Shown here: positions 15,332-41,473 of the stretch, one piece after another
Position numbering within the stretch: position 1 is the first letter of the stretch
Layout: every line of letters starts with the position of its first letter
Sequence record: OZ035778.1
Reading direction: 5' to 3' (one strand)
Length of the DNA stretch: 45,947 nt
Source of the DNA: Vectrevirus NIC06P3
The notes under the pieces: model-generated
Seen by the model: the letters and a program-made list of their open reading frames with translations, nothing else
Databases searched by the model: none
What the model was told of the DNA's origin: nothing
Program-made: the position numbers and the translations under genes

Positions 15332-15347
15332 GTCTCACATGTGAGAC
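15332..15347. promoter_or_regulatory. 16-bp perfect palindrome GTCTCACATGTGAGAC, copy 1
   Basis: Exact core also at 15518, 18599, 24792 and 41458, with a one-base variant at 20024; all intergenic. Confidence 0.5.
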
Positions 15348-15350
15348 TTA

Positions 15351-15373
15351 TATTTACCGGACACTATAGGATA
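15351..15373 (+). promoter_or_regulatory. phage promoter
   Basis: TATTTACCGGACACTATAGGATA. Confidence 0.7.
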
Positions 15374-15517
15374 AACCATCGGAGATGGGAAAGAGAAGGG
15401 AAGATAAAGGATATAAAGGAAGTAATAGGTATTAAAGGTTATATAGGTTTACCTAGGAATACCTATTACCTTCTTCCTTCCTCCTCTTACTACTTAGAGG
15501 AAGGGCAGACCTATGTT

Positions 15518-15533
15518 GTCTCACATGTGAGAC
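15518..15533. promoter_or_regulatory. 16-bp palindrome GTCTCACATGTGAGAC, copy 2
   Basis: Exact repeat of the core. Confidence 0.5.
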
Positions 15534-15537
15534 TTCG

Positions 15538-15560
15538 TATTTACCGGACAATATAGATAA
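15538..15560 (+). promoter_or_regulatory. variant phage promoter (GTATTTACCGGACAATATAGATA)
   Basis: Two core mismatches; second of a tandem pair downstream of the RNA polymerase gene. Confidence 0.5.
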
Positions 15561-15586
15561 GACTAACTCACTTTGGAGATTTAAAG

Positions 15587-15715
15587 ATGCGTAACTTTGA
15601 GAAGATGACCTGTAAAGCTAACCGTTTTGACATGGAAGAAGGGCAGAAGAAAGGCAAGAAGCTGAATAAACCTGTCCGTGACCGTGCATCCAAACGCGCA
15701 GCGTGGGAGTTCTAA
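15587..15715 (+). CDS. small basic protein, T7 gp1.1-like
   Basis: 42 aa starting MRNFEKMT, as T7 gp1.1 does by my recollection; position right after the RNA polymerase gene. Confidence 0.5.
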   Translation: MRNFEKMTCKANRFDMEEGQKKGKKLNKPVRDRASKRAAWEF

Positions 15716-15718
15716 GTT

Positions 15719-15937
15719 ATGGCTAAATATAGAATTAAGACACACATGGATTGCAGCGGTGTGGAACGTTATACAGTTCAGCGTAAAATACTAGGATTAT
15801 TATGGGTAGATTGCATCATACCGTTTGGATATGTAGATGGCCCTGCTATCTTCTCTCATGAAGAAGATGCCAAGGCATTTATATCAAAAAGAAAGAAGAT
15901 TGATTCCTATAAGTCTAAAGTTATTAAGGTGAACTAA
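15719..15937 (+). CDS. hypothetical protein
   Basis: 72-aa ORF with RBS GGGAG; stop overlaps the primase/helicase start. Confidence 0.4.
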   Translation: MAKYRIKTHMDCSGVERYTVQRKILGLLWVDCIIPFGYVDGPAIFSHEEDAKAFISKRKKIDSYKSKVIKVN

Positions 15938-17916
15938 TGGCTATTATTAATAACATCCCGTGCCCTGCCTGCCAGAAGAATGGACACGATAAATCCGGCA
16001 ATCATCTTATGATATTTGATGATGGTGCTGGCTATTGTAACCGTGGTCACTTCCACGATAATGGCAGACCTTACTACCATAAGCCTGAAGGCGGCATCGA
16101 GATAACCGAGTTGCCTATCACAGGTAACATCAAATACACCCCTTCCCAATTCAAAGAGATGGAGAAGGAAGGGAAGATTAGCGACCCTAAACTACGCGCC
16201 ATCGCACTTGGTGGTATGCGTATGAAAGACCGTTGGGAGGTCATGAATGAGCAAGAAAGGGCAGACCAAGAAGCAGAGTGGAAACTTGATGTTGAATGGT
16301 TCCTCACGCTTAAGCGTAAGAACCTTGTTTCCCGACACATTCGCGGCGACATTTGCGCATTGTATGATGTACGTGTCGGACACGATGAAGAAGGTAGAGT
16401 CTCGCGGCATTATTATCCACGCTTCGAAAAAGGTGAGTTAGTAGGCGCTAAGTGTCGCACATTACCTAAAGACTTTAAGTTTGGTCACTTAGGCAAGCTC
16501 TTTGGTATGCAAGACCTTTTCGGGATGAACACTTTGTCTCACGTGTTAGACAAGGGAAGACGAAAGGATTGCTTACTTATTGTAGGCGGTGAACTTGATG
16601 CACTAGCAGCGCAGCAGATGCTTCTTGATTCTGCCAAAGGCACTAAGTGGGAAGGCCAACCCTACCATGTATGGTCTGTCAACAAGGGGGAGTCTTGCCT
16701 TGAAGAGATAGTGCAAAACCGTGAGCACATCGCCCAATTCAAGAAGATTATTTGGGGCTTTGATGGAGATGAGGTAGGGCAGAAGCAGAACCAGCAAGCG
16801 GCTCGCCTGTTTCCCGGCAAATCCTATATCCTTGAGTACCCTTCTGGTTGCAAAGATGCTAACAAGGCATTGATGGCTGGCAAGTCTAAAGAGTTTGTGG
16901 ATGCATGGTTTAATGCCAAGTCCTCTGATGAAGTCTTTGGTAGCCAGATTAAATCTATCGCATCTCAAAGGGACAAGCTCAAAGCTGCACGCCCAGAGCA
17001 AGGGTTGTCATGGCCTTGGCCTAAGCTGAACAAGGTAACGCTAGGTATTCGTAAGAATCAGCTTATCATTGTAGGTGCAGGCTCTGGTGTGGGTAAGACT
17101 GAGTTCCTTCGTGAAGTAGTTAAGCATCTCATTGAAGAGCATGGAGAATCTGTAGGCATCATTTCTACAGAAGACCCGATGGTCAAGGTATCCCGTGCCT
17201 TTATCGGTAAGTGGATTGATAAGCGTATTGAACTACCGCCAACCAACGATCCGAAAGAGGATGGATACCGTGAGGTGTTCGACTACACAGAGGAAGAAGC
17301 TAATGCTGCCATTGATTATGTAGCTGACACAGGGAAGCTATTTGTGGCTGACCTAGAAGGTGACTATTCAATGGAGAAGGTGGAGCAAACTTGCCTTGAG
17401 TTTGAGGCTATGGGTATTTCTAATATCATCATTGATAACTTAACGGGGATTAAATTAGATGAGCGTGCTTTTGGTGGGAAGGTTGGTGCACTTGATGAAT
17501 GCGTCAAGCGGATTGGTACTATCAAAGACCGACACCCAGTTACTATATTCCTTGTATCACACCTTACACGCCCTGCGGGAAATAGAGTCCAGCACGAAGA
17601 AGGTGGCGAGGTTATCCTTTCTGACTTCCGAGGCTCAGGCGCTATCGGATTCTGGGCATCTTACGCCTTGGGGATTGAGCGTAATACAAGAGCTGAAACG
17701 CTTGATGAAAGGACTACCACGTACATCTCATGTGTCAAAGACCGTGACCAAGGTGTGTGGACTGGCACTAAAGTGAAACTTAAAGGTGATATGACCACAG
17801 GGAGGTTGTTGGAATGGGAAGATCGTGTTTCTAGATTTGACACAGGTATCCCTAAGGAGCAAAGTGTACCTGATGAAAACACAGGAGAGTTGAATGAAGA
17901 AACTTCAGAGTTTTGA
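15937..17916 (+). CDS. DNA primase/helicase (T7 gp4-like)
   Basis: N-terminal zinc ribbon CPACQ ... CNRGH; Walker A GAGSGVGKT; 659 aa. Confidence 0.93.
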   Translation: MAIINNIPCPACQKNGHDKSGNHLMIFDDGAGYCNRGHFHDNGRPYYHKPEGGIEITELPITGNIKYTPSQFKEMEKEGKISDPKLRAIALGGMRMKDRWEVMNEQERADQEAEWKLDVEWFLTLKRKNLVSRHIRGDICALYDVRVGHDEEGRVSRHYYPRFEKGELVGAKCRTLPKDFKFGHLGKLFGMQDLFGMNTLSHVLDKGRRKDCLLIVGGELDALAAQQMLLDSAKGTKWEGQPYHVWSVNKGESCLEEIVQNREHIAQFKKIIWGFDGDEVGQKQNQQAARLFPGKSYILEYPSGCKDANKALMAGKSKEFVDAWFNAKSSDEVFGSQIKSIASQRDKLKAARPEQGLSWPWPKLNKVTLGIRKNQLIIVGAGSGVGKTEFLREVVKHLIEEHGESVGIISTEDPMVKVSRAFIGKWIDKRIELPPTNDPKEDGYREVFDYTEEEANAAIDYVADTGKLFVADLEGDYSMEKVEQTCLEFEAMGISNIIIDNLTGIKLDERAFGGKVGALDECVKRIGTIKDRHPVTIFLVSHLTRPAGNRVQHEEGGEVILSDFRGSGAIGFWASYALGIERNTRAETLDERTTTYISCVKDRDQGVWTGTKVKLKGDMTTGRLLEWEDRVSRFDTGIPKEQSVPDENTGELNEETSEF

Positions 17917-18385
17917 GGAAGCAGGATATGTCGTCAAGGAAGACGGCACGATCTTAAACCCAAAAGGTTTGGTCAGAAAACCATCCTTCGCAGGTAGGAA
18001 TGTTAAATACTATGTAGTATCTTGGAGGGATAAACACTCTAAGAAAACAATCATAGATTTAGTTCACAGATTGGTTGCTAAGAAGTACATACCTAACCCA
18101 TATGGTTTACCAGAAGTTCATCATAAAGACTTTAATCCTCTTAATTGTCATAAAGACAATCTTGAATGGACAGATGGTAAGTCTAACTGTGAGTACAGTT
18201 ATGCAAGGGTAAAGGCTTCACTTGCACGTCGTGCTACTTTGTTGTCACCTGATGGCACTAAGTACGACATATTTAATGTTCGTAAATTCTGCCGTGAGCA
18301 TAACCTCAATCCACCCAGCATATTTGAAGTGCTTAGTGGTAAGCGTAAATCTCACAAAGGGTGGACTATTTACCGGACACTATAG
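17894..18385 (+). CDS. HNH homing endonuclease
   Basis: VHHKDFNPLNCHKDNLEW HNH motif; overlaps the primase/helicase 3' end and runs into the downstream promoter. Confidence 0.75.
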   Translation: MKKLQSFEEAGYVVKEDGTILNPKGLVRKPSFAGRNVKYYVVSWRDKHSKKTIIDLVHRLVAKKYIPNPYGLPEVHHKDFNPLNCHKDNLEWTDGKSNCEYSYARVKASLARRATLLSPDGTKYDIFNVRKFCREHNLNPPSIFEVLSGKRKSHKGWTIYRTL

Positions 18386-18390
18386 AAGAG
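18367..18390 (+). promoter_or_regulatory. phage promoter
   Basis: CTATTTACCGGACACTATAGAAGAG. Confidence 0.8.
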
Positions 18391-18419
18391 ACAACCTTTG
18401 ATGATGAACAGGAGTTTTA

Positions 18420-18581
18420 ATGGAAATTATTAAACCACTATTGAATATCGGCGTTGACATCCTATTCATGCTTATGCTGGCAAATTATGCTTCACGATAC
18501 GGCTTCAAGCCAGCAGTGAAACTTATCGTTGCATCTGGTTTTATTATGTCAGCATTCTTTGTTGTAACACGTCTTATCTAG
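18420..18581 (+). CDS. small hydrophobic protein (53 aa)
   Basis: Two predicted hydrophobic segments; RBS AGGAG; below the ORF-track cutoff. Confidence 0.35.
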   Translation: MEIIKPLLNIGVDILFMLMLANYASRYGFKPAVKLIVASGFIMSAFFVVTRLI

Positions 18582-18598
18582 TGTATTTATCAGGGCTT

Positions 18599-18614
18599 GT
18601 CTCACATGTGAGAC
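18599..18614. promoter_or_regulatory. 16-bp palindrome GTCTCACATGTGAGAC, copy 3 (extended stem GCTTGTCTCAC/GTGAGACAGGC)
   Basis: Exact core; flanks extend the stem. Confidence 0.5.
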
Positions 18615-18652
18615 AGGCTCTTATTAAGTACATTAATAACTGGAGATTGATT

Positions 18653-19336
18653 ATGTGTAAATTAGTATTGAATGCAGGTGATTATGTTCGTAACATCAAT
18701 GAGATCTCACGTCGCTATCGTTGCCGTGGCGTTGTTAGCGATGTAAGTGAGAATATGTACCACGTAGTATATAGCAATGGTATCAGTCAGTCTTATCACA
18801 AGAAGTCAGCACACAACTACCTTGAGAAGATTGGAGAGGCAAGCAATCAATGTAAGTGTGTACACGATGAGGTTTGCGATAAGTGTGCTCGCCAGATGCA
18901 GAAGGTGGTATTGCATCACCACCTGTACAGAGGTGGTATTCAAACCTTAGCAGAGGCGTGTGGCACAACTAAGACTACTCTCAAGAAAGAGCGCCGCAAT
19001 GTAATCACTGGTAAGACTCAGAGTGAAATGATTAAGCAATGTGGCACTGCATTAGGTGTATCACAGTTTAACACTCGTGCATTGGGTAAATCCACAGGGC
19101 AAGCTATGGTTAAGATTGGTGAAGCCATGATGCACCCAAATGTACCTGTGCGAATCATGGATGTTGACCATGCAATCACAGAACATGGTACACCACGACG
19201 TGTAGCTAATAAGCATTTTGCCGACACTATAGAAGGTATTATTCGTAAGCAAGGGTTGAAAGGTCTTCACCTCTTGAATGGTGAAGAATTACTGTACCTT
19301 CCTATCGTTACTGAAGAAACCTACGTGAATATCTAA
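18653..19336 (+). CDS. hypothetical protein
   Basis: 227 aa from ATG 18653 with RBS TGGAG; Cys-rich segment CKCVHDEVCDKC; contains an internal promoter-like core at 19213-19236. Confidence 0.5.
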   Translation: MCKLVLNAGDYVRNINEISRRYRCRGVVSDVSENMYHVVYSNGISQSYHKKSAHNYLEKIGEASNQCKCVHDEVCDKCARQMQKVVLHHHLYRGGIQTLAEACGTTKTTLKKERRNVITGKTQSEMIKQCGTALGVSQFNTRALGKSTGQAMVKIGEAMMHPNVPVRIMDVDHAITEHGTPRRVANKHFADTIEGIIRKQGLKGLHLLNGEELLYLPIVTEETYVNI

Positions 19337-19346
19337 GGAGTTAATC

Positions 19347-19562
19347 ATGACTAAAGTTCTAATTATCAGAGACTGCGGTGAAAAGTTTTATGGTATTGTA
19401 TCACCAAATGGTGTTAAAGTGGTGAGCCATAAACCTAATGCAATACGAGGTGCTGGTAGGTCAGCTAGTTTTCAAATGGTCCTATATGGTAATCTTACTG
19501 AGAAACAATTCCGTAATAAGTGGAAGGTTATCGGCAGCTTTATGGTGGAGACTAAACAATGA
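19347..19562 (+). CDS. hypothetical protein
   Basis: RBS AAGGAG; 71 aa. Confidence 0.45.
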   Translation: MTKVLIIRDCGEKFYGIVSPNGVKVVSHKPNAIRGAGRSASFQMVLYGNLTEKQFRNKWKVIGSFMVETKQ

Positions 19563-19813
19563 AGCAACGTGCAATCAAACGCTGTATCAAGCGTGCTCAA
19601 AAGCAGTTACGTCGTGGTACATTTAAAGGGCGTATGCGTATTGTAAGTTTTAATGCCAAAGGTATTGTCTTTGTTAGATCTTATAAAGAAGGCCGAACTA
19701 TTTATGTGAATGATAATGGTATTGGCTGGGGCGTAGGTGCTGCACTAAGTAAGTGTGGTGGTCATGGTCATTGGGTAGGTAACAAAGTAGAGGTAGCAAT
19801 TTCTTATGTCTAA
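19559..19813 (+). CDS. hypothetical protein
   Basis: 84 aa; start overlaps previous stop (ATGA). Confidence 0.4.
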   Translation: MKQRAIKRCIKRAQKQLRRGTFKGRMRIVSFNAKGIVFVRSYKEGRTIYVNDNGIGWGVGAALSKCGGHGHWVGNKVEVAISYV

Positions 19814-20012
19814 ACACAGCCTTAAGATGTTTGATGGTCACGAAGACCTGCAAGCACACATCACTAATCAAGCCTTCCTGTTTGCACAGCTAACTATGGC
19901 TGAAGCAAAGAAGAATAGCCTGACGCGTGAGCAGGTTATCAAGGAGGCAACTTGGGAGCCACACCAAGGGAAATACATGGGCCATAAATTAACTGTAACA
20001 CGCAGTCGATAA
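19806..20012 (+). CDS. hypothetical protein
   Basis: 68 aa; overlapping gene arrangement. Confidence 0.35.
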   Translation: MSKHSLKMFDGHEDLQAHITNQAFLFAQLTMAEAKKNSLTREQVIKEATWEPHQGKYMGHKLTVTRSR

Positions 20013-20023
20013 GTCAAGGGTTG

Positions 20024-20039
20024 TCTCACACGTGAGACA
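20024..20039. promoter_or_regulatory. palindrome variant GTCTCACACGTGAGAC, copy 4
   Basis: One symmetric change (CACGTG centre), keeps perfect dyad symmetry. Confidence 0.45.
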
Positions 20040-20136
20040 GCCTTTCATCATGTTGATTGGAGGTGCATTATGCCACGTGATTATGATTCTGATTGGGACT
20101 ACTATGACTCAATGAATCCAAAACCCGAACGTTCAG

Positions 20137-22710
20137 ATGATTACTACGAAACAGAGGCAATGTATGAAGATTACTGATTGGAAGAAGGAGGCAAAAGGCC
20201 GTATCCTAGTAATGGATGCGGAGGCTAAAGGCTTGCTTGATGCTATCCGATATGGACACCGCGAAGATGTGCACATCATTTGCTGCATGGATTTGCTTAC
20301 TACCGAGGAGTTCCTCTTCTTTGACCCGTATGAGATGCGTGACCCTGAAGCAAGGGAGCGCCTGAAGGAATGGGAAGGGCATCAAGACGGTGACTTGGTT
20401 GACGGTGTTAACTTCCTGAAGCACTGTGAAGCTATCGTGTCACAGAACTTCCTAGGTTATGACGGCCTTCTCTTTGAGAAAGCATTCCCTACTATCTGGA
20501 AAGGCTTTAACTATACCGAGAGGCGCGGCAAGGGCAGACTCCGCGCCGACCTGTGTCCTGTGCGAGTCATGGACACGCTGGTGATGAGTCGCCTGTTAAA
20601 CCCCGATAGACGCCTTCCTCCGCAAGCATATGCCAAAGGTATGGGTAACGTCGCCCCTCACTCAATTGAGGCGCACGGCATCCGTATAGGCCGCTATAAA
20701 CCGGAGAACAAGGACTGGTCTAAGCTGACCGACCACATGGTTCACCGTGTACGTGAGGACGTGGCGATTGGTCGTGACTTTTTCCTGTGGCTGTATAACG
20801 GGGAGTGGGTGGAGCACAAACGCCGTGGCGTGAATAAACGTACTGGCCTAGGCATTGAGACAGCCTTCCACATGGAGTCCATTGTGGCGCTGGAGATGAG
20901 CCGTCAGGCCGAGCGCGGATTCCGTCTGGACATCGACAAGGCTTTGTCCCGATGCGAAGAACTGGACGCTAAGATTGATGAGACAGTCGCAGCGTTCCGC
21001 CCGCACATGCCTATGCGTATCAAGTCTAAACCTTTTAAACCGGAAGAAAAGAATGAAGTATGCCAACGCGCAAATGAGTATGGAGCTAGCAACAATATAC
21101 CTACTATCCTGGACCCCTCACACTTTCTTCATGCCGAGAGACGAGGAGATCGCAAGACAGTATGGAGTGTCACTACTAAGTCTGGTGATTGGTCGGCTAG
21201 TGTCAAGAAAGACTTTCCTCACCTTAGAGGAAACCGTAATGACACGCCAAGCATCAAGTGGATTGGCGCTTACTCTCCTGTTACGTTTGAAGAGATTCCC
21301 TTGGGAAACCGTGACACCGTTAAGCAAGTGCTCTACGAATATGGCTGGAAAGGTGTGGAGTTCAACGACACAGACCAAGCCTATCTTGATGAAAATGGTG
21401 TCCTACCTAAGCCTTGGAGTGGTAAGATAAATGAGAAATCCCTTACTTTATGGCAAGAAAGAGCAGCACGTGAAGGTAAAACAGTCCCTGATTGGTGCTT
21501 GGGTATCGCTGCATGGTACATACTCGTATCCCGTCGTGGTCAGATCCTCAACCGTGGTGACGTTGAAGTCTTCAACGAGAAAGGTACGTGGCCCTCGCAG
21601 GCTGGTGTACGAAAGTGTCGCGGCCTTGTACCTGTAGCCTTTAACAAGGAGCTAGGAATCAATGCACAGCAATACTACGAGAGGTATGGGTGTTGGCCCA
21701 CGTCTGACAAGGATGACGGAGAGTGGCGTGTACCAGCTATTGCTATTAGCATTGGCACTTCTACGTTCCGTATGCGTCATCGTAACGTGGTTAATATTCC
21801 TGCCCGTGGCTTGTATCCTTTACGTGATTTATTCATAGCAGGTAAAGGTAAGCTAATCCTAGGCTGTGATGGTGCAGGTCTGGAACTACGTGTACTCTCT
21901 CACTTCATGAATGACCCTGAGTACCAAGATATTGTACTGCACGGTGACATCCATACGCATAACCAGATGAAGGCAGGTCTTCCTAAGCGTGATATGGCGA
22001 AGACATTTATATATGCTTTCCTCTACGGCTCTGGTATAGCAAACCTTGCAGCAGTATGTGGTGTTACTGAGGAAGAGATGAAAGAAGTTGTGGCAAGATT
22101 TGAGATTGAGCTACCATCTCTTGCACGTCTTCGTGAGAATGTTATTGCACAAGGTAACAAATTTGGCTACCTACAAGCACCTGATGGACATTGGGGTCGA
22201 ATCCGTATGTCTGGTGGGGAACTTAAAGAGCACACTATGCTTAACGTGTTACTCCAGATGACTGGCTCTTTGTGTATGAAATACGCATTGGTTAAGGCGT
22301 TTGCAGTGATGCGCAAGGAAGGTGTAGCTCTAGATAGCATGGGAAATCCTTGTGGTGTAGCTAACGTGCACGATGAAATCCAGATGGAAGTACCCGAAGA
22401 TGAGGTCTTGTATCTTAACTACGACTTACCTTTCACCTTAGAAGGGTTTGAAACAGAGAAGGCTGCTGTGAAAGCAGTGTTCGATGCAGAGGAGAAACGT
22501 GTTCATGTTGACTCTGAGGGACGTATGTGGTCGGCTGCAAATCTCGTTAGCGTTGATGCTGATGCTGGTGTACTTCATTGCCAGCGCCGTTATCACCGTG
22601 CAGGGCATATCATTGCCGACGCCATGACTTGGGCTGGTCAGTATCTGAAGATGCGTTGCCCGATGGCTGGCGAGTATAAGATTGGTGCAAGTTGGAAGGA
22701 AACACACTGA
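20137..22710 (+). CDS. DNA polymerase (T7 gp5-like, family A)
   Basis: DGAGLELRVLSHFM, KTFIYAFLYGSG and VHDEIQMEV match T7 DNA polymerase motifs; start codon uncertain (20137 or 20164). Confidence 0.93.
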   Translation: MITTKQRQCMKITDWKKEAKGRILVMDAEAKGLLDAIRYGHREDVHIICCMDLLTTEEFLFFDPYEMRDPEARERLKEWEGHQDGDLVDGVNFLKHCEAIVSQNFLGYDGLLFEKAFPTIWKGFNYTERRGKGRLRADLCPVRVMDTLVMSRLLNPDRRLPPQAYAKGMGNVAPHSIEAHGIRIGRYKPENKDWSKLTDHMVHRVREDVAIGRDFFLWLYNGEWVEHKRRGVNKRTGLGIETAFHMESIVALEMSRQAERGFRLDIDKALSRCEELDAKIDETVAAFRPHMPMRIKSKPFKPEEKNEVCQRANEYGASNNIPTILDPSHFLHAERRGDRKTVWSVTTKSGDWSASVKKDFPHLRGNRNDTPSIKWIGAYSPVTFEEIPLGNRDTVKQVLYEYGWKGVEFNDTDQAYLDENGVLPKPWSGKINEKSLTLWQERAAREGKTVPDWCLGIAAWYILVSRRGQILNRGDVEVFNEKGTWPSQAGVRKCRGLVPVAFNKELGINAQQYYERYGCWPTSDKDDGEWRVPAIAISIGTSTFRMRHRNVVNIPARGLYPLRDLFIAGKGKLILGCDGAGLELRVLSHFMNDPEYQDIVLHGDIHTHNQMKAGLPKRDMAKTFIYAFLYGSGIANLAAVCGVTEEEMKEVVARFEIELPSLARLRENVIAQGNKFGYLQAPDGHWGRIRMSGGELKEHTMLNVLLQMTGSLCMKYALVKAFAVMRKEGVALDSMGNPCGVANVHDEIQMEVPEDEVLYLNYDLPFTLEGFETEKAAVKAVFDAEEKRVHVDSEGRMWSAANLVSVDADAGVLHCQRRYHRAGHIIADAMTWAGQYLKMRCPMAGEYKIGASWKETH

Positions 22711-22721
22711 GTTATACTCAA

Positions 22722-22745
22722 GGTCACTTACGAGTGGCCTTTATG
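22722..22745 (+). terminator. candidate intrinsic terminator
   Basis: GGTCACT-TACG-AGTGGCC hairpin (UACG tetraloop, one G-U pair) followed by TTTATGG. Confidence 0.4.
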
Positions 22746-22777
22746 GATAACTTATCCCTGCTTATTTTGTCTAACAT

Positions 22778-22800
22778 GATTTACTGGACACTATAGAAGG
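22778..22800 (+). promoter_or_regulatory. phage promoter
   Basis: ATTTACTGGACACTATAGAAGG. Confidence 0.8.
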
Positions 22801-22865
22801 AAAGCCTAGGTAATCTAGGTTTATAAGGTAGTATACTTAATTAAGTAAATATAGGAGGTGTAAAT

Positions 22866-23243
22866 ATGTCTATGGTAACTACTCTGGTATACGTAGCTCG
22901 ATGCTTTCGTGGTCTGGCTTATAAATTCAAGTTAAAGGCTATCACAGCTATTAAGTTTCGCATCGAAGCAGTACAGGCAGAACAAGTCAAAGTTGAAGAA
23001 CACCGTAGTTCTCAAATGATTGACTGCCATAATCGCTACTATGCATCTCGTGATGACCTGAATGCACGTCAAGTCAAAGAGGTTGAAGAGATGTTAGCAC
23101 GTCACCAGCAAGAGCGTGACAACCTGAAAGCCGCCTTCGAAGAGAACAAGGCAGTCATTGCCCTTGTACATCAAGCTGCATCTGACAGTCTGAAGAAAGA
23201 GATTGTTATGCTGGAGATTGAACTGGACAACCTGACCAAGTAA
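22866..23243 (+). CDS. hypothetical protein (coiled-coil)
   Basis: RBS TAGGAGG; 125 aa. Confidence 0.5.
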   Translation: MSMVTTLVYVARCFRGLAYKFKLKAITAIKFRIEAVQAEQVKVEEHRSSQMIDCHNRYYASRDDLNARQVKEVEEMLARHQQERDNLKAAFEENKAVIALVHQAASDSLKKEIVMLEIELDNLTK

Positions 23244-23755: not shown

Positions 23756-24562
23756 ATGGCACGTGGTGATTTTGATTTTGGTGCTCAGGTTACTAAAGCT
23801 GAAGGTAAAGTATTTAAGAACCCTGAAGTTGGTGATCATGAAGCAGTAATCTCTGGTATCATTCATGTGGGTTCCTTCCAAGATATCTTTAAGAAAGGTA
23901 ATACCACTGAAGTTAAGAAGCCAGCAAACTTTGTTCTGGTTAAGATTGTCCTGATGGGTGACGATGACAAGAACGAAGATGATTCTCGCATGGAACAGTG
24001 GATGGCTGTACCTCTGAAGTCTGGTGACAAGGCAACACTGACTAAGTTCCTGAATGCAGTTGACCCTAAAGAGTTGCTTGGCGGTTTCGATGACTTCATC
24101 GGTGAATGCTTGACTGCAACTATGGTTGGCTCTGGCGACAAGAATGACGATGGCTCATTCAAGTATGTTAACTGGAAGGGCTTTGGTGGTATGCCGGACA
24201 AGCTGAAGAAACTTGTCATTGCTCAGGTTGAAGAGGAAGGTCTGTCTATGACAGGTCACATTACCTTCGACAAGCTGACCAAAGAAATCATTGATGACAT
24301 CCCTGCTAATCTGGTACGTCAATACCTCTTGAATGAGACGCCTCGTGGTAAGAACCTGTCTGTTGCTGGCTCTCACGTAGAGGCAATCATTAAAGCTGCT
24401 CGTGAAGAAGACCCAGAATGGAAGAAGGCTAAGAAGAAAGACGACGATGATGCTACTCCAGCTAATCGTAAGTCTCTGGATACTGGTGAGTCTGTTCCAC
24501 AGGAAGTTCCAGAAGCAGACAATGCTCCTGCACCGGAAATGGATGAGGACGCGGAATATTAA
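23756..24562 (+). CDS. acidic-tailed protein, possible ssDNA-binding protein
   Basis: 268 aa with strongly acidic C-terminus (... EMDEDAEY); own promoter and about 185-nt structured leader; function by analogy only. Confidence 0.35.
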   Translation: MARGDFDFGAQVTKAEGKVFKNPEVGDHEAVISGIIHVGSFQDIFKKGNTTEVKKPANFVLVKIVLMGDDDKNEDDSRMEQWMAVPLKSGDKATLTKFLNAVDPKELLGGFDDFIGECLTATMVGSGDKNDDGSFKYVNWKGFGGMPDKLKKLVIAQVEEEGLSMTGHITFDKLTKEIIDDIPANLVRQYLLNETPRGKNLSVAGSHVEAIIKAAREEDPEWKKAKKKDDDDATPANRKSLDTGESVPQEVPEADNAPAPEMDEDAEY

Positions 24563-24791: not shown

Positions 24792-24807
24792 GTCTCACAT
24801 GTGAGAC
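24792..24807. promoter_or_regulatory. 16-bp palindrome GTCTCACATGTGAGAC, copy 5
   Basis: Exact core, directly upstream of a phage promoter. Confidence 0.5.
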
Positions 24808-34570: not shown

Positions 34571-34577
34571 TACCTAT

Positions 34578-34612
34578 GCCCTATCTACCTTGCGTAGGTA
34601 GGGTTCTTTTTG
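34578..34612 (+). terminator. intrinsic terminator after the capsid gene
   Basis: CCCTATCTAC / GTAGGTAGGG stem with one G-U pair, then TTCTTTTT. Confidence 0.6.
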
Positions 34613-34624
34613 TTAGGAGGATTC

Positions 34625-35362: not shown

Positions 35363-37764
35363 TGGAAGTACAAGGTTCATTAGGTAGACAAATCCAAGGG
35401 ATTAGCCAGCAGCCGCCAGCGGTACGCTTGGATGGTCAGTGCACAGCTATGGTTAATATGATACCTGATGTAGTGAATGGCACTCAATCCCGCATGGGTA
35501 CAACTCATATTGCAAAGTTACTTGATGCGGGGACTGATGATATGGCCACACACCATTATCGCAGAGGTGATGGTGATGAAGAGTATTTCTTCACATTGAA
35601 GAAAGGACAAGTCCCTGAGATATTCGATAAGTATGGGCGCAAATGTAATGTGACCTCACAAGATGCACCTATGACTTATTTGGCTGAGGTGATAAACCCA
35701 AGAGAAGATGTGCAATTTATGACGATAGCTGATGTTACTTTCATGCTTAACCGCAGGAAGGTAGTTAAAGCTAGTAACAGAAAGTCACCCAAAGTTGGAA
35801 ACAAAGCCATTGTGTTTTGTGCATATGGTCAATACGGTACATCTTATTCCATTATAATTAATGGTGTCAACGCTGCTAGTTTTAAAACACCAGATGGTGG
35901 AAGCGCAGAGCAGGTTGAACAAATTCGAACGGAACATATCACTTCGGAATTGTACTCTAAGTTGCAGCAATGGAGTGGAGTTGGTGATTATGAAATACAA
36001 AGAGACGGTACAAGTATATTTATAGAAAGACGTGATGGTGCAAGTTTTACAGTAACAACCACCGATGGTGCAAAGGGGAAAGACTTAGTGGCTATCAAGA
36101 ATAAGGTCAGCTCTACCGACCTCCTTCCTTCTCGTGCACCTGAAGGTTATAAGGTGCAAGTATGGCCTACTGGAAGCAAACCCGAGTCTCGTTATTGGTT
36201 GGAAGCAGAGCCAAAAGAGGGTAACTTAGTATCTTGGCAAGAGACGGTTGCTGCTGACGTATTGCTTGGTTTTGATAAAGGCACTATGCCTTATATCATT
36301 GAGCGTACGGGCATTATCGATGGTATTGCTCAATTTAAGATTAGGCAAGGCGATTGGGAAGATCGCAAGGTAGGTGATGACCTCACTAACCCTATGCCGT
36401 CTTTCATTGATGAAGAAGTACCTCAGACAATTGGCGGGATGTTCATGGTGCAGAACCGTTTATGCTTTACAGCAGGTGAGGCAGTCATTGCATCTCGTAC
36501 TTCCTACTTCTTTGACTTCTTTCGTTACACAGTGATCTCAGCTTTAGCTACTGACCCGTTTGACATCTTCTCAGATGCGAGTGAAGTTTACCAATTGAAA
36601 CATGCAGTGACTTTAGACGGTGCTACTGTGCTGTTCTCTGATAAATCTCAATTTATCTTGCCTGGAGATAAGCCTCTGGAGAAATCTAATGCCTTACTCA
36701 AACCTGTAACTACATTTGAGGTGAACAACAAAGTTAAGCCAGTTGCCACTGGTGAATCCGTAATGTTCGCTACAAACGATGGAGCATACTCTGGTGTACG
36801 AGAGTTCTATACAGACTCTTATAGTGATACTAAGAAGGCACAGGCAATCACAAGCCATGTGAATAAACTCATCGAAGGTAACATTATTAACATGGCAGCA
36901 AGCACTAATGTCAACCGCCTGCTTGTCACCACTGATAAGTATCATAATATAATTTACTGCTATGATTGGTTATGGCAGGGAACAGAACGTGTTCAATCAG
37001 CTTGGCACGTGTGGAAGTGGCCTTTGGGTACAAAGGTGAGAGGTATGTTTTATTCTGGTGAATTACTTTACCTGCTTCTGGAGCGAGGCAATGGTGTATA
37101 TCTGGAGAAGATGGATATGGGAGATGCACTGACCTATGGTTTAAATGACCGTATCCGAATGGACAGGCAGGCAGAGTTAACCTTCAAGCATTTCAAAGCA
37201 GAAGATGAGTGGGTATCTGAACCACTCCCTTGGGTTCCTACTAACCCAGAACTCTTGGATTGCATCTTAATAGAAGGCTGGGATTCATATATTGGCGGCT
37301 CTTTCTTATTCAAGTACAACCCCGGTGATAACACCTTATCTACAACTTTTGATATGTATGATGATAACCACGTAAAAGCAAAGGTCATTGTTGGTCAGAT
37401 TTACCCTCAAGAGTTTGAACCTACACCTGTGGTTATCAGAGACAATCAAGACCGTGTATCCTATATTGATGTACCAGTTGTTGGATTGGTCCACCTTAAC
37501 CTCGACATGTACCCTGATTTCTCCGTAGAAGTTAAGAACATTAAGAGTGGTAAAGTACGTAGAGTGTTAGCATCAAACCGCATAGGTGGTGCTCTAAACA
37601 ATACGGTAGGTTATGTTGAACCAAGAGAAGGTGTCTTCAGATTTCCACTGAGAGCTAAGAGTACGGATGTTGTTTATAGTATTATTGTAGAGTCACCTCA
37701 CACATTCCAGCTTCGTGATATTGAGTGGGAAGGAAGCTACAATCCAACCAAAAGGAGGGTCTAA
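35362..37764 (+). CDS. tail tubular protein B (T7 gp12-like)
   Basis: About 800 aa; gene order after tail tube A. Confidence 0.8.
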   Translation: MEVQGSLGRQIQGISQQPPAVRLDGQCTAMVNMIPDVVNGTQSRMGTTHIAKLLDAGTDDMATHHYRRGDGDEEYFFTLKKGQVPEIFDKYGRKCNVTSQDAPMTYLAEVINPREDVQFMTIADVTFMLNRRKVVKASNRKSPKVGNKAIVFCAYGQYGTSYSIIINGVNAASFKTPDGGSAEQVEQIRTEHITSELYSKLQQWSGVGDYEIQRDGTSIFIERRDGASFTVTTTDGAKGKDLVAIKNKVSSTDLLPSRAPEGYKVQVWPTGSKPESRYWLEAEPKEGNLVSWQETVAADVLLGFDKGTMPYIIERTGIIDGIAQFKIRQGDWEDRKVGDDLTNPMPSFIDEEVPQTIGGMFMVQNRLCFTAGEAVIASRTSYFFDFFRYTVISALATDPFDIFSDASEVYQLKHAVTLDGATVLFSDKSQFILPGDKPLEKSNALLKPVTTFEVNNKVKPVATGESVMFATNDGAYSGVREFYTDSYSDTKKAQAITSHVNKLIEGNIINMAASTNVNRLLVTTDKYHNIIYCYDWLWQGTERVQSAWHVWKWPLGTKVRGMFYSGELLYLLLERGNGVYLEKMDMGDALTYGLNDRIRMDRQAELTFKHFKAEDEWVSEPLPWVPTNPELLDCILIEGWDSYIGGSFLFKYNPGDNTLSTTFDMYDDNHVKAKVIVGQIYPQEFEPTPVVIRDNQDRVSYIDVPVVGLVHLNLDMYPDFSVEVKNIKSGKVRRVLASNRIGGALNNTVGYVEPREGVFRFPLRAKSTDVVYSIIVESPHTFQLRDIEWEGSYNPTKRRV

Positions 37765-38492
37765 TGGCTATAGGTTCAGCCGTTATGTCTGGTATGTCCT
37801 CTCTGGGTAGTATGTTTGCAGGTAGCGGTGCAGCAGCCGCTGCAGGTGGTACTGCCGCCGCAGCAGGTGGTGGAGGTTTACTAGGTTCCGTGGGAAGTTT
37901 CCTAAGTGGTTCCACTGGTGGCTTCTCCAATACAGGCTTGCTTAGTGCAGGTATGCAAGGTCTTGGTCTTCTAGGTAATCTTTTTGGTGGAAGTGATGAA
38001 GCCAAAGCTATGAAGAAAGCTCAGGAGGAGCAATGGCGGCAGCAGTTAATTGCTACACAAGAGGCATACAAAACGGTAGCAGATGCAGAACGCTCTGCTG
38101 CTAAACAGTACCATGCAGACGCAATAAGCAATCAGGCTTCACTACTACAGCAGCGAGCACAGGTTGCATTACTTGCAGGTGCTACGGGAACTGGTGGTAA
38201 CTCTGTGTCTTCTATGCTGAATGATTTGGCAGCAGAGGGAGGGAGGAATCAGAGTACAATTATTGATAACTATGAGAATCAGAAGATTAATTTCACCAAC
38301 CAGCTTAAGTCCATTCAACGTGGTGGACAGATGCAGATGCGTGAGTTTAGGAAACCTTCTGCCGTAAGTACCTTGGTTCAAGGTATTCCAAGTCTTGCAT
38401 CTGCCTATGTAATGGGTAGCAAGTCTGGTACGGCATTAGGTAAAGCCTTAACTGATTCTCGTACATATTCATCTGGAACAAGAGGTATTTAA
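37764..38492 (+). CDS. internal virion protein (Gly/Ala-rich N-terminus)
   Basis: RBS AAAGGAGGG; first of three internal core genes by order. Confidence 0.6.
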   Translation: MAIGSAVMSGMSSLGSMFAGSGAAAAAGGTAAAAGGGGLLGSVGSFLSGSTGGFSNTGLLSAGMQGLGLLGNLFGGSDEAKAMKKAQEEQWRQQLIATQEAYKTVADAERSAAKQYHADAISNQASLLQQRAQVALLAGATGTGGNSVSSMLNDLAAEGGRNQSTIIDNYENQKINFTNQLKSIQRGGQMQMREFRKPSAVSTLVQGIPSLASAYVMGSKSGTALGKALTDSRTYSSGTRGI

Positions 38493-41440
38493 TGGCAATT
38501 GAGCGACAAGCAGTACAAGGTCTGCCACAAGTGCAGGCCACTTCTCCTAATGTCATGACCTTTGCACCTCAGCAAGTTGGAGGTGTGGAGACTGGCGTAG
38601 CTTCTACCTCCGGTAGTCGATTTATCGAAGACCTTATTCGAGCAGCCAGCAGTGTAGCTGATGTAACTACTGGTATCCTTAATCAAAAGATTGAGGAAGA
38701 TAAGGTTGTTCAAATGGAAAGGGCATATAATGGATTAATGCCTTCTGAGGATGCAACTCGTGGTGGCGCTCGTGCTAACATGCTTGTCAAAGCTCAACTG
38801 CTGGCTAATGATGAAGCAGCACGAATGAAAGACATGGCTACTCGTTTCCAAGGAACGGATGACGAGTGGACGCAACTCATGGTCGATTCTCGTAATGAGA
38901 TGCAGAATAAGCTGTTCCAGCAATACCCAGAGTTGCAAGGTGACAAAGATACAATGCGTATGGTCACTAACGTATTTCAGGAACAGCAGCCTCAGATTTG
39001 GGCCACACGTACCCAGCACAAACTGGACCGTGAACAGGCAGACCGTGAAGATACCTTTGACGGGCGAGTAGCTTCTACTTGGGACTCTAGTATTGACCCT
39101 GAAGCCTCTGGTTATGCTTTACAGGAACGAATCCGAGAAGGTCTGACGCAAGGTTTACTGCCTGAGCAGATGCACAAGAAGCTGGTAGAGCGAGCCATCT
39201 CGCTTGCTCAAGGCGGTGACATTAGTATGGCTGAAGCCTTGAAGTATGTGAAAGATGATAAAGGTGTTTCTGTCTATGCTAAGAACCCCCAGCTTATCAC
39301 AGCTATCACTAATGGTAATGCAGTTTGGGCTAGGAATAATGTTGCTGATGTAACGCGTATGTCTTTTGAAGTCAAAGAGTCTTACCTTGCAGGTGACTTG
39401 ACTGATGAAGAATTACTTGAGCGAGCACAGCACATTAATAGCCTGACAGGGAACTCTGTCTTCTCTAATCCAGAACTAGAAGCATTGATGCGCCAACGAG
39501 CTAAGCAGAATGCAGAGCTAGGTGCAATGCAGGATATGCGACGTGAACTTTACTCTGATCGTATGATTGGTCTTCAAGGTAAGTCGGATAAAGAAAAGAA
39601 AGCCTACGTTGATCTTATCAAACAAGATAGTCAACTCTACATAGACCAGCAAATCAAGCAGCGAGGAGTAGACCCTTACAGCCAAGAGGCCGAAGCTATA
39701 CGTGGTGCAGTAGAAGTACAGCGCCTGCAATTCATGAACTCCAAAGGTTTAGTGGATGATACCTTTGAATCTCGTATCAAGGCTATGGAATCCATGCTAT
39801 CACCTGAGCACTTTGCTAAAGGTGAACCACAGGAGTTAATGACCATTCGTCAGTTGTGGGAGCAGTTACCCGAAGAAAGTCGAGGTGTCTTTGGTGACAC
39901 TGTGAACAGCTATATGGATAACTACAATACTGCATTGCAAATGGGTGAAACACCTTTGCAGGCTGCAAGGTTTGCCCGTGAAGCACAGCAGAAATTCTCT
40001 CGTACCGAGAAAGAGACTAAGAAGTTCAACTCAGCTATTGGAGATGCATTGGATGAAGTATCTGGTGCTGGCTGGTTCGACGGTAAGACAGAAGTGTCTG
40101 ACTTAGGTAAAGCTATTGCAGAAGAAGAACTACGGGCTAAGGCCAATATGTTGTGGTCTAGCGGCATGCGTAACATGGATTCCATCAAGAAGGCTTTAAT
40201 TACTTGGGGCAACAAACGCTACACTCAATCAGAGGATGCAAAGACTTCCGGTGGCTATTTCATTAAAGGCGATTACACTTCTGCATCTGACATGCTTATG
40301 TCAGTTGGGAAAGGTGTAAACCCTACCGATGTACCTCTGGCACTTGGTAGGTATGTAGAAACACAGATGCCAGAATTGAAGAAGGAACTTCAAGAGTGGG
40401 AAACTAAAGATGATATATACATTGATTACAATGAACAGAAAGGTACTTTCGTGATTCGTGCTGGTGCAGCAGGTCGCCCTCTTTCTGGAGTAATCCCTGT
40501 AACCTCTTTAGATACCACTTCACTACTAGATTCTGCCTATCAGAAGAAAGTAGAGGAACGAGATAAAGGCGAGTACGTTCACCCGTATCGTACAGATATT
40601 GGTGCACAAGAGCCTATGCCAGCTAAACCAACTGCCAAAGATATTGGTAAATTTGGACTAGCTAACTTCCTCATGTCTTCTGCTTTTGCTTCTGGTGAGA
40701 ATCTACCTTCTAACTTCGAGATTAACTATCGAGGCAATATGCAACAATTCTATGACAAGCTAGCTATGGATGAGAATAAAGATAAAGTTGGCTTTAATAA
40801 GGCAACTGGAACCTTTACTCCATATAAAGACGCTCACGGTGAGTCTATCGGTTACGGTCATTTCTTAACAGAAGAAGAGAAGCGAAACGGGTATATTAAG
40901 ATTGGCGATGAACTAGTTCCCTATCGAGGGTCTATGTCTCAGCTTACAGAGAGTAAGGCTCGCGCTCTTATGGAGCAAGATGCCAAGAAGCATGTGCCCC
41001 CTACTCGTGACTGGAAGATTCCGTTTGAGCAGATGCACCCTGCACAGCAACGTGGTTTGATGGATTTAACCTACAACCTAGGTAAAGGTGGAATCCAAAA
41101 TGCACCACGTGCTCTTGCTGCATTCAAGGCGGGTAAACTTACTGAAGGCTTTATCGAAATGCTTGGTACTGCATCAAGTGAAGGTAAGCGTATTCCCGGC
41201 TTACTGAAGCGACGTGCTGAGGCTTACAACATGGCATCTGCTGGAGGTGTTCCTAAGATTACCGAAGTAGAAACTCGTGAGGATGGCTCTATGTGGGTTA
41301 AGTTTGGCGGTCCTATGCCAGCAGGCTCTGTCTCTGCGTGGACCCATAAGCGTATTGGTGCGGATGGCTGGTATCAAGTTTATGAGGCTGCACCTACCAA
41401 GTTAGCTAAAGGCTCTAAAGTAGGTAAAGTTAAGTTGTAG
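38492..41440 (+). CDS. internal virion protein with C-terminal T4-lysozyme-like (GH24) domain
   Basis: 982 aa; TFTPYKDAHGESIGYGHFLT and QRGLMDLTYNLGKGG parallel the T4 lysozyme YKDTEGYYTIGIGHLLT and INMVFQMGETG segments. Confidence 0.75.
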   Translation: MAIERQAVQGLPQVQATSPNVMTFAPQQVGGVETGVASTSGSRFIEDLIRAASSVADVTTGILNQKIEEDKVVQMERAYNGLMPSEDATRGGARANMLVKAQLLANDEAARMKDMATRFQGTDDEWTQLMVDSRNEMQNKLFQQYPELQGDKDTMRMVTNVFQEQQPQIWATRTQHKLDREQADREDTFDGRVASTWDSSIDPEASGYALQERIREGLTQGLLPEQMHKKLVERAISLAQGGDISMAEALKYVKDDKGVSVYAKNPQLITAITNGNAVWARNNVADVTRMSFEVKESYLAGDLTDEELLERAQHINSLTGNSVFSNPELEALMRQRAKQNAELGAMQDMRRELYSDRMIGLQGKSDKEKKAYVDLIKQDSQLYIDQQIKQRGVDPYSQEAEAIRGAVEVQRLQFMNSKGLVDDTFESRIKAMESMLSPEHFAKGEPQELMTIRQLWEQLPEESRGVFGDTVNSYMDNYNTALQMGETPLQAARFAREAQQKFSRTEKETKKFNSAIGDALDEVSGAGWFDGKTEVSDLGKAIAEEELRAKANMLWSSGMRNMDSIKKALITWGNKRYTQSEDAKTSGGYFIKGDYTSASDMLMSVGKGVNPTDVPLALGRYVETQMPELKKELQEWETKDDIYIDYNEQKGTFVIRAGAAGRPLSGVIPVTSLDTTSLLDSAYQKKVEERDKGEYVHPYRTDIGAQEPMPAKPTAKDIGKFGLANFLMSSAFASGENLPSNFEINYRGNMQQFYDKLAMDENKDKVGFNKATGTFTPYKDAHGESIGYGHFLTEEEKRNGYIKIGDELVPYRGSMSQLTESKARALMEQDAKKHVPPTRDWKIPFEQMHPAQQRGLMDLTYNLGKGGIQNAPRALAAFKAGKLTEGFIEMLGTASSEGKRIPGLLKRRAEAYNMASAGGVPKITEVETREDGSMWVKFGGPMPAGSVSAWTHKRIGADGWYQVYEAAPTKLAKGSKVGKVKL

Positions 41441-41457
41441 TACCTAACTCAAGGCTT

Positions 41458-41473
41458 GTCTCACATGTGAGAC
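41458..41473. promoter_or_regulatory. 16-bp palindrome GTCTCACATGTGAGAC, copy 6 (extended stem)
   Basis: Exact core with flanks GCTTGTCTCAC / GTGAGACAGGTC. Confidence 0.5.

Follow-up and report, generated by a model that had tools for sequence, protein, structure and literature searches.

The genome of Vectrevirus NIC06P3 contains a repeated 16-bp palindrome made of two abutting 8-bp half-sites, and it seems probable that a dimer of the early protein gp6 uses this element as its operator. There are no binding data, and binding by gp6 is inferred. The stretch analysed comprised 45,947 nucleotides (sequence record OZ035778.1; hereafter the window) and derives from a circularly permuted K1E/K1-5-like Vectrevirus.

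The exact 16-mer GTCTCACATGTGAGAC was observed five times (at 15332, 15518, 18599, 24792 and 41458), just as an earlier note on this DNA had described. The sixth copy of that note, a one-mismatch variant GTCTCACACGTGAGAC, occupies positions 20023-20038; the start given for it, 20024, was off by one, and, although described there as symmetric, it is not strictly so, because its centre is AC. Two further copies with two mismatches had been missed, GTCTCACACGTTAGAC at 10148-10163 and GTCTCACGTGTTAGAC at 16536-16551. When up to two mismatches were allowed, 8 matches were found in the window versus 0.01 expected, and 8 was reached in none of 100 shuffles. The stand-alone copies and the promoters beside them are:

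10148-10163, no strand assigned: left end of the genome, degenerate copy GTCTCACACGTTAGAC, 5' of the early host-type promoters
15332-15347, no strand assigned: exact 16-mer, with the early terminator on one side and the first phage promoter on the other, at about -37 to -22
15352-15369, plus strand: first phage promoter after the RNA polymerase (RNAP) gene, ATTTACCGGACACTATAG
15518-15533, no strand assigned: exact 16-mer, 5' of the second phage promoter
15539-15556, plus strand: phage promoter ATTTACCGGACAATATAG
16536-16551, no strand assigned: copy GTCTCACGTGTTAGAC within the primase/helicase CDS, coding for LSHVLD
24792-24807, no strand assigned: exact 16-mer, 5' of the gene-18 phage promoter
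24823-24840, plus strand: phage promoter ATTTACTGGACACTATAG

Three copies thus precede phage promoters ATTTACYGGACAMTATAG at 15352, 15539 and 24823 by 4, 5 and 15 nt, respectively, in agreement with the earlier description. The six copies listed there are all intergenic, as was claimed, but the copy at 16536-16551 is inside a coding sequence, and therefore not all members of the palindrome family lie between genes. This copy has TTAGAC in place of TGAGAC, which is a stop codon in that frame. The motif and its positions were sought in SP6-like relatives, as had been proposed, and all eight positions were kept in K1E, KAW1A4500 and K1-5; the position of the copy at 10148 was kept in all relatives, and SP6 has GTCTAACATGTTGGAC at the sites orthologous to the palindrome copies. 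Rfam gave no match in the window at gathering thresholds, and a literature search with the 16-mer strings gave no paper.

Judged from sequence alone, the core appears to behave as a symmetric DNA site, a conclusion that is supported by several observations. Its two 8-bp half-sites, GTCYMACR (GTCTCACR in the window), are arranged symmetrically. At loci that had not been chosen by the motif, 2-nt centres were R-Y in 178 of 178 cases and 3-nt centres R-N-Y in 15 of 15, and no other spacing was seen. The pairs of the core are Watson-Crick, and G.U pairs accumulate in the flanks only. The palindrome is kept in a wide clade of Autographiviridae (Molineuxvirinae, Colwellvirinae, Vibrio phages and many metagenomic contigs), whose core proteins are only 25-55% identical to those of the window and whose promoters and hosts differ; T7 lacks both the palindrome and gp6. 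Coding copies lie in variable loops of helicase and RNAP, where S[HN][VA]LD is present only if the DNA motif is present, and their synonymous sites match the palindrome variant of their own genome. Of the 115 IMG/VR stretches that carry the motif, about 47 were on unrelated contigs, roughly what chance would give. Versions of 16 and 17 bp coexist in single genomes (PM116, Alpheus), and this counts against an operator, because a rigid dimer would not tolerate such coexistence.

Three copies, at 18599, 20023 and 41458, also have extended complementary flanks, where only two had been reported. It is supported that they cap T7-type RNase III-like hairpins, cleavage by RNase III being inferred only, and the earlier idea of a layered hairpin function is borne out for these copies. 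One more hairpin of this type has no palindrome, so the RNA and DNA layers are separable:

18579-18636, plus strand: T7-type RNase III-like bipartite hairpin 5' of gene 10, apex the exact 16-mer 18599-18614 (64.6 bits, E 8e-16)
20003-20060, plus strand: T7-type RNase III-like bipartite hairpin 5' of gene 12, apex the variant GTCTCACACGTGAGAC 20023-20038 (50 bits)
22707-22756, plus strand: T7-type RNase III-like hairpin ACUCAAGGUCACUUACGAGUGGCCUUUAUGGAU, without the palindrome (29.4 bits, E 2e-5)
41438-41495, plus strand: T7-type RNase III-like bipartite hairpin 5' of gene 36, apex the exact 16-mer 41458-41473 (82.5 bits)

The three capped hairpins folded with -29 to -31 kcal/mol on the plus strand, compared with -16 to -23 on the minus strand. 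Bipartite hairpins were 97.8-99.5% paired, as against 30-45% with slid pairing, with 6-10 compensatory pairs, and their score was reached in none of 500 shuffles. A covariance model (R1) built solely from SP6-like sites (n = 10) matched six sites in T7, all on the plus strand (853-902, 1428-1480, 5848-5899, 13854-13904, 18502-18575 and 36817-36868), with E-values of 1e-8 to 1e-5. We take these to be the experimentally defined sites R0.3, R0.5, R1.1, R4.7, R6.5 and R18.5, whose coordinates are reported by Dunn & Studier 1983. The three hairpins and the T7 RNase III sites have the flanks ACUCAAGG…CCUUUAUGAU in common, and the hairpin at 41438-41495 has ACUCAAGG…UCUUUAUGAU, as in T7 R sites. At the stand-alone copies (15332, 15518, 24792, 10148 and 16536) model R1 matched the 16-nt core only (15.5 bits, E 0.25); the extended flanks were absent, leaving a 6-bp hairpin with a 4-nt loop and about -7 kcal/mol.

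These structures could suggest that the motif acts purely at the RNA level, every copy being a hairpin of the sense strand that serves as RNase III site, stabilises 3' ends or insulates the 5' UTR. The copies would then be held identical by gene conversion between repeats and not by a sequence-reading protein. T7-like phages recombine efficiently, and in distant relatives the motif often follows a stop codon and precedes the next Shine-Dalgarno sequence. Besides the three copies that are clearly within RNase III-type hairpins, G.U pairs favour the sense strand, by 303 to 131 in the flanks and, as U.G versus C.A, by 22 to 7 at core pair 4; the SP6-type site GTCTAAC…GTTGGAC allows U.G pairing in sense RNA only. 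The excess at core pair 4 suggests that the core, too, is under some selection in RNA. As the whole explanation, however, we consider RNA function unlikely. RNase III needs a much longer stem than a stand-alone copy provides, and structure alone cannot explain the invariance of the motif across so divergent a clade, its R-Y or R-N-Y centre, the copies in coding DNA and upstream of the first promoter, or the residue-by-base co-variation with gp6 described below, blind predictions included. Gene conversion, for its part, is unable to hold one sequence across genera.

It is highly improbable that the copies serve the phage or host RNAP as intrinsic terminators or pause sites. The PM116 record annotates the orthologous gene-10 hairpin as a Rho-independent terminator, some copies are followed by U-rich stretches, and seven SP6 RNAP terminators have been counted in the literature (PMC11347151). 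There is, however, no consistent U-run 3' of the copies, the 3' flank being A in 190 of 253 contexts; the SP6 t5 terminator, which has been tested, differs in sequence, and copies are present within the RNAP and helicase genes. In distant relatives a separate canonical GC-rich terminator adjoins the motif, which is therefore not the terminator itself. An intrinsic (class I) terminator of the phage RNAP was rejected in particular, the copies failing the criterion of a stable GC-rich hairpin with a U-run straight after it. Promoter mimicry, considered for the resemblance of the right arm to promoter positions -12 to -5, was likewise dismissed, since promoters differ between genera and the motif is constant.

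The protein that we propose as the binder of the palindrome, gp6, is encoded by a conserved early gene of unknown function which adjoins the RNAP gene:

11684-12568, plus strand: early gene 6 (K1E gp6 / SP6 gp7, phrog_4571), proposed palindrome binder

The predicted model comprises an N-terminal KorB/ParB-like helix-turn-helix (HTH), a disordered linker, a long helix and a J-like C-domain, and it bears out a KorB/ParB/SopB-like HTH fold of the ParB superfamily for the N-terminal domain. Its predicted recognition helix spans K61-F74. On the second HTH helix, the co-varying residues Q63, K66 and S69 stand at i, i+3 and i+6; K66 varies together with position 5 of the half-site. The gp6 of the window had no Pfam match; for DUF3102 (PF11300), the Alpheus homolog of gp6 scored 15.5 bits, below the gathering cutoff of 24.4. 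No match was obtained when PDB sequences were searched with gp6, with gp16 or with the N-domain profile, a profile query for homologous proteins yielded just three, and a locus search with the gene-36 N-terminus found close relatives only. UniRef names two Vibrio-phage homologs of gp6 DUF3102 domain-containing. As another candidate binder, gp16 (23756-24562) was set aside; its acidic C-terminal tail with a final aromatic residue resembles single-stranded DNA-binding proteins of the T7 gp2.5 type, by inference only.

The half-site was found to change together with the predicted recognition helix. YKLM occurred with GTCTCAC and YNLM or YHLM with GTC[CT]AAC, concordantly in 46 of 46 loci, so that residue 66 is K with GTCTCAC and N or H with GTCYAAC. 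Further helices had their own half-sites: ASKLM with GTTTCAC, KAYVYRLM with GTCTACA, KAWAYRLM with GTCTAGT, KAWAFKLM with GTCTCYT and GKSSVSEWCK with GTTCGAG. At least four independent concordant switches between K and N/H were placed on the RNAP tree, and three of three blind predictions of the half-site from the helix were right. In one gp6-bearing contig (L169) a repeated palindrome was not found, and part of the co-variation could come from common ancestry of the left arm of the genome. Co-evolution of the half-site with this putative recognition residue is supported; that it reflects binding is inferred.

A different protein might read the sites, such as primase/helicase at origin GTC sites, an endonuclease VII or HNH nuclease, or the phage RNAP, with gp6 co-varying through shared ancestry. 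The sites cluster around the RNAP-helicase-DNA polymerase region, and both arms of the palindrome begin with GTC, the core of T7 primase recognition. Two sites flank an AT-rich segment that has inverted repeats and tandem promoters and is reminiscent of the T7 primary origin as its layout is generally described. We nevertheless give this explanation little credence. Co-variation was neither found nor sought for primase/helicase, the nucleases or RNAP, and the correlation with gp6 concerns one predicted recognition-helix residue that has switched back and forth at least four times. Phage promoters change between genera and the motif does not, which speaks against RNAP; HNH genes are sporadic, and a nuclease, one of the readers suggested in the earlier note, finds no support. 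The dimeric sequence-specific reader also suggested there is supported computationally by the symmetric core, the coding copies and the co-evolution with the gp6 helix, binding remaining an inference.

If the palindrome is the operator of gp6, the approximately eight sites per genome would form a small regulon-like set, in which one site precedes the early host promoters, the first two phage promoters after the RNAP gene and the gene-18 promoter each have one directly beside them, the primase/helicase gene contains one, and three lie between genes. Palindromes in transcribed spacers would fold in the mRNA, and the copies 5' of genes 10, 12 and 36 may be harmless at the tip of pre-existing T7-type RNase III hairpins, where they would lengthen the stem. 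Most likely gp6 would modulate nearby promoters in the manner of KorB and/or mark the region near the origin; this effect of binding is inferred as well. More speculatively, and we doubt it more than we believe it, gp6 and its operators might constitute an unrecognised KorB-like system of global control or DNA marking, kept throughout a large lytic clade of the T7 supergroup, in which K or R at residue 66 reads G:C and N or H reads A:T at half-site position 5, and the J-like C-domain couples to host Hsp70, for example in timing the hand-over from host to phage RNAP or in marking the origin region.

About half of the genes of SP6, K1E and K1-5, phages that serve as models and are relevant to therapy, have no known function. 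Our analysis offers an explanation for a conspicuous genome-wide repeat and gives a conserved early gene beside the RNAP gene a testable role, that of a sequence-specific DNA binder with defined sites, as far as binding can be inferred. A natural specificity swap is on offer, K66N versus C-to-A in the half-site. The sites illustrate how, in a compact genome, the same nucleotides may serve both as an operator, here an inferred one, and in a hairpin for RNA processing, and the database annotation of these hairpins as Rho-independent terminators is corrected. Lamassu/DdmABC defence is known to be triggered by palindromes of this kind (PMC11707656), so the sites may burden the phage with a fitness cost that it accepts.

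Similar sites were also found outside these phages. Clusters of the exact 16-mer, parS-like in arrangement, are present on two high-GC contigs, beside parA and a gene for a protein in the ParB position. The ParB-position protein of one (L122) aligned to gp6 residues 9-73 (BLASTP E 3e-5), and that of the other (L125) was not significant (E 0.5). A third unrelated contig, with two copies of the 16-mer, encodes a gp6-like domain (E 1e-6). Similarity of the gp6 N-domain to the ParB-position proteins is weak and is revealed only by pairwise BLASTP and profile comparison (14 bits against the profile, E 0.12 in the full ORF set); phmmer with the two proteins found no ParB homolog in the window.

The known systems closest to this arrangement are the T7 R sites, the KorB/ParB family and the PeSL cassettes. 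Like T7 R sites, the structures at 18599, 20023 and 41458 are intergenic sense-strand bipartite hairpins with an internal loop, shortly 5' of a ribosome-binding site. Their upper stem is 13 bp with an invariant palindrome at its tip, whereas in T7 it is 9-10 bp and variable in sequence, and the palindrome also stands alone where no RNase III substrate is possible. Much as with the class I-III KorB operators (OB sites) of IncP-1 plasmids (RK2), some of the copies described here adjoin promoters and others are promoter-distant or intragenic. As with KorB/OB and ParB/SopB/VirB, the site is a short perfect palindrome with about 8-12 copies per replicon of about 45-60 kb, and the chromosomal parS half-site GTTTCAC is one base from GTCTCAC and is itself present in Vibrio phage Vc1. 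Unlike those systems, the replicon is a strictly lytic T7-like phage, and the half-sites abut or are 1 bp apart, which is not the geometry of parS. The C-terminus of gp6 resembles a J-domain without HPD, and its sequence similarity is under the family thresholds. In contrast to ParB, gp6 has no N-terminal CTPase (Srx-like) domain, as the predicted model begins at the HTH; since there is also no Pfam ParB-type match and no window ORF of at least 40 aa with the deviant Walker A motif of ParA (KGGxGK[ST]), gp6 is not a canonical ParB. PeSL (promoter-early stem-loop) cassettes of T4-type phages are thought to be recombination modules and are not known to be tied to a DNA-binding protein. They share with our sites a repeated stem-loop beside a promoter, at gene boundaries of a plastic genome region, but the palindrome described here is kept across genera, is found within coding sequences as well and changes in step with a protein.

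The palindrome GTCTCACATGTGAGAC is a real repeat in this genome, a circularly permuted K1E/K1-5-like Vectrevirus that shares about 90% identity with K1E across 12 kb (K1E position + 8528 approximates the window position). Eight matches with at most two mismatches were found in the window, against 0.01 expected:

15332, 15518, 18599, 24792 and 41458: exact copies
20023: variant copy, GTCTCACACGTGAGAC
10148 and 16536: copies with two mismatches

The earlier note had placed the variant at 20024, but it starts at 20023. All copies had been described as lying between genes, which holds for the five exact copies and the one at 20023, although an additional copy of the motif lies within the primase/helicase gene. 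As had been proposed, three copies, at 15332, 15518 and 24792, lie just upstream of phage promoters (gaps of 4, 5 and 15 nt; 3 of the 13 phage promoters in the window). A search of relatives, suggested at the same time, showed that all eight positions are also filled in K1E, KAW1A4500 and K1-5, and that the motif belongs to a family in the wider clade.

Extended complementary flanks had been claimed for two copies; the flanks are real, but they are found at three, 18599, 20023 and 41458. There the sense strand folds as a bipartite hairpin, with a 13-bp upper stem tipped by the 16-mer, an internal loop and a lower stem of about 9 bp, and the sense fold (−29 to −31 kcal/mol) is more stable than the antisense fold (−16 to −23 kcal/mol) because several pairs are G.U. 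When orthologous sites from 10–13 diverse phages were aligned, 97.8–99.5% of cells were paired, compared with 30–45% when the partners were slid; compensatory changes occurred at 6–10 pairs, and no shuffle reached the covariation score. The flanks of the 41458 copy (ACUCAAGG…UCUUUAUGAU) are those of the T7 RNase III sites R0.3, R0.5, R1.1, R4.7 and R18.5. A covariance model trained on SP6-like gene-36 sites alone matched six T7 stretches, on the sense strand only (E 1e-8 to 1e-5). These coincide with R0.3, R0.5, R1.1, R4.7, R6.5 and R18.5 (site coordinates of Dunn & Studier 1983). Judged by this sequence kinship, the three copies lie within T7-type RNase III processing signals, an ordinary and known kind of element, cleavage itself being inferred. 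At least one database record mislabels such a hairpin as a Rho-independent terminator. The model also matched a fourth hairpin in the window:

22707-22756: T7-type RNase III-like hairpin without the palindrome, ACUCAAGGUCACUUACGAGUGGCCUUUAUGGAU, directly after the DNA polymerase gene

This hairpin, together with the stand-alone palindromes, shows that the RNA-processing and palindrome functions are independent.

The conservation of the core far exceeds what structure needs. The most that a stand-alone copy can form is a stem of 6 bp closed by a 4-nt loop (about −7 kcal/mol), and the covariance model matched such copies over the core only. The core is Watson-Crick paired, with G.U pairs common in the flanks alone. 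Every Molineuxvirinae genome examined carries 5–10 sites of a family GTC[CT][AC]AC-(RY or RNY)-GT[GT][AG]GAC, as do Vibrio phage BD5 and Alpheus, a member of the Colwellvirinae; the phage promoters of these genomes all differ. The motif is absent from the T7 genome. Scanning IMG/VR with GTCTCACRYGTGAGAC returned 115 stretches, about 60% of them on contigs with SP6-type core proteins only 25–55% identical to those of the window, the rest being close to chance expectation. Within genomes, 16- and 17-bp forms occur together, a weak point for recognition by a dimer. Of 253 distinct motif contexts, 58 fall in long ORFs. A terminator role was ruled out, since in distant relatives the motif adjoins separate canonical terminators. 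In SP6-type sites U.G occurs in the sense RNA only (22 vs 7 at core pair 4), suggesting that RNA pairing has helped to shape the core as well.

At loci chosen independently of the motif, all 178 two-nucleotide centres were R-Y and all 15 three-nucleotide centres R-N-Y, from which the unit is read as a symmetric pair of 8-bp half-sites (GTCYMACR) that either abut or are separated by 1 bp. Asymmetric centres were found in either orientation relative to transcription. The coding copies, in the primase/helicase and RNAP genes, sit in loops that vary among phages, T7 having a deletion at this place, and the residues S[HN][VA]LD are present only where the DNA motif is. Their synonymous positions match the motif variant of their own genome, as does the central codon (Val GTG vs Ala GCG in BD5), and in genomes with the half-site GTCTCAC the coding right arm reads TTAGAC, as TGAGAC would put a stop codon in frame. 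Coding copies thus bear the marks of selection or conversion acting on the DNA sequence, not on the protein.

The motif-bearing clade has a common early gene directly upstream of the RNAP gene (window 12632-15259), with no homolog in T7:

11684-12568: gp6 gene (K1E gene 6 / SP6 gene 7, phrog_4571), function unknown

The exact 16-mer GTCTCAC(GC/AT)GTGAGAC was also clustered on L122 and L125, two high-GC, actinobacterial-type contigs (viral or plasmid) unrelated to these phages, in parS-like positions adjoining a parA gene and a gene in the ParB position:

L122:2061-2159: four copies within 100 bp
L125:964-1019 and 3004-3019: three copies

The ParB-position protein of L122 aligns to gp6 residues 9–73 (BLASTP E 3e-5), while that of L125 gave no significant match (E 0.5); a gp6-like domain (E 1.4e-6) is encoded on a third unrelated contig that has the 16-mer twice. 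In an AF2 model made from a 40-sequence alignment, the gp6 N-domain (residues 10–122) is all-helical and confident (pLDDT >90), with a helix-turn-helix of helix 46–57, a turn and helix 61–74, followed by a disordered linker (127–192), a long helix (193–231) and a small, J-like C-domain. Fold and sequence similarities of gp6 are only moderate. K1E gene 2.5 (L001:1716-1928) and its homologs encode a 70-aa early protein weakly similar to the N-terminal HTH (E about 0.003), which may be a small gp6 paralog; no homolog was detected in the window.

The signature F.IKKAQ.Y[K/N]LM.V is shared between gp6 and its relatives. The residue following the conserved Tyr (window K66) tracks half-site position 5, C or A, and the two were concordant at 46/46 loci in the first tabulation. 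More divergent helices were paired with other dispersed palindromes.

Residue at gp6 position 66 or helix, half-site, and source
K; GTCTCAC; Vectrevirus, Eracentumvirus, Alpheus, MJG, VP-HS15, contigs L064, L070, L099, L171, L172
R (equivalent position); GTCTCAC; high-GC contigs
N; GTC[CT]AAC; Kp7-like, POP72, PM116, L016-L029, Vibrio BD5
H; GTCTAAC; SP6, L170
KAQASKLM; GTTTCAC (the chromosomal parS half-site); Vibrio Vc1
KAYVYRLM; GTCTACA; L031
KAWAYRLM; GTCTAGT; Pseudomonas MR4
KAWAFKLM; GTCTC[CT]T; Ralstonia Reminis
GKSSVSEWCK; GTTCGAG; Marinomonas CB5A

In direct read-out, Lys and Arg usually pair with G:C, and Asn and His with A:T. The site-tracking Q63, K66 and S69 share one face of the second HTH helix in the AF2 model. 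On the RNAP tree the K/C type is widespread, the N/A type is that of BD5 and the enteric Molineuxvirinae, and K/C-type Vectrevirus and L172 are nested separately among N/H relatives, so that at least four independent concordant switches took place. Half-sites were also predicted blind from the helices of four further homologs before their contigs were retrieved; the predicted palindromes (GTCCAAC, GTCTCAC and GTTTCAC) were present in all three contigs long enough. Against the proposed pairing, no repeated palindrome was found on L169, another gp6-bearing contig. Independent comparative evidence supports the earlier suggestion of sequence-specific recognition layered on a hairpin function. The pairing of gp6 with its proposed operator appears to be new, and it is inferred without binding data. 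Our literature search did not find the palindrome sequences, an earlier mention of the hairpins in two 2004 genome papers not being excluded, and found no function assigned to DUF3102.

Other features of the window were as follows:

4575-4592: exact classical SP6 promoter, ATTTAGGTGACACTATAG, upstream of 429-aa and 691-aa ORFs (4634-8006)
8905-9588, minus strand: DUF3159 protein (Pfam E 1e-50)
17894-18385: HNH/NUMOD-like homing endonuclease ORF, 163 aa, directly after the primase/helicase gene
23756-24562: gene 16, 268-aa protein, function unknown

The two ORFs had no Pfam match and are probably tail-spike genes; the remaining phage promoters are of K1E type, ATTTACYGGACACTATAG, which suggests that a module was acquired here from an SP6-type phage. 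Near the genome ends or concatemer junction, a segment of about 0.9 kb (8700-9600), which encodes the DUF3159 protein, has 70–97% G+C within a 45% G+C phage. Related phages lack this segment, and it has the look either of inserted foreign DNA or of a chimera made in assembly. The endonuclease ORF is absent from K1E at the corresponding place. The tail of the gene 16 protein is acidic and its last residue is aromatic (…EMDEDAEY), as in T7 gp2.5, and by this analogy the protein may be the single-stranded DNA-binding protein of the clade.

We propose that gp6, an early product of transcription by the host polymerase, would bind the palindromes as a dimer. The promoter-adjacent sites suggest a KorB-like modulation of transcription: a left-end site lies 11–40 nt from the −35 box of early promoters in several relatives, two sites lie at about −22 to −38 relative to the first phage promoters, and another adjoins the gene-18 promoter. 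At the three intergenic sites that precede genes 10, 12 and 36, the palindrome and an RNase III hairpin have nucleotides in common. Between the tandem motif and promoter units (15370-15517) there is a long purine-rich/pyrimidine-rich inverted repeat with an AT-rich centre (−53 kcal/mol for 15365-15560), resembling the T7 primary replication origin (phi1.1A/B) in position and layout. It would also be compatible with the data if this cluster of sites, promoters and inverted repeat after the RNAP gene marked a T7-like origin region, and the data do not decide between origin marking and transcription modulation. As for gp6 as the proposed reader, it lacks the CTPase domain of the ParB family, nor does the window encode a ParA-like Walker motif, which places gp6 outside the ParB family proper; it is KorB/ParB-like in its DNA-binding domain.
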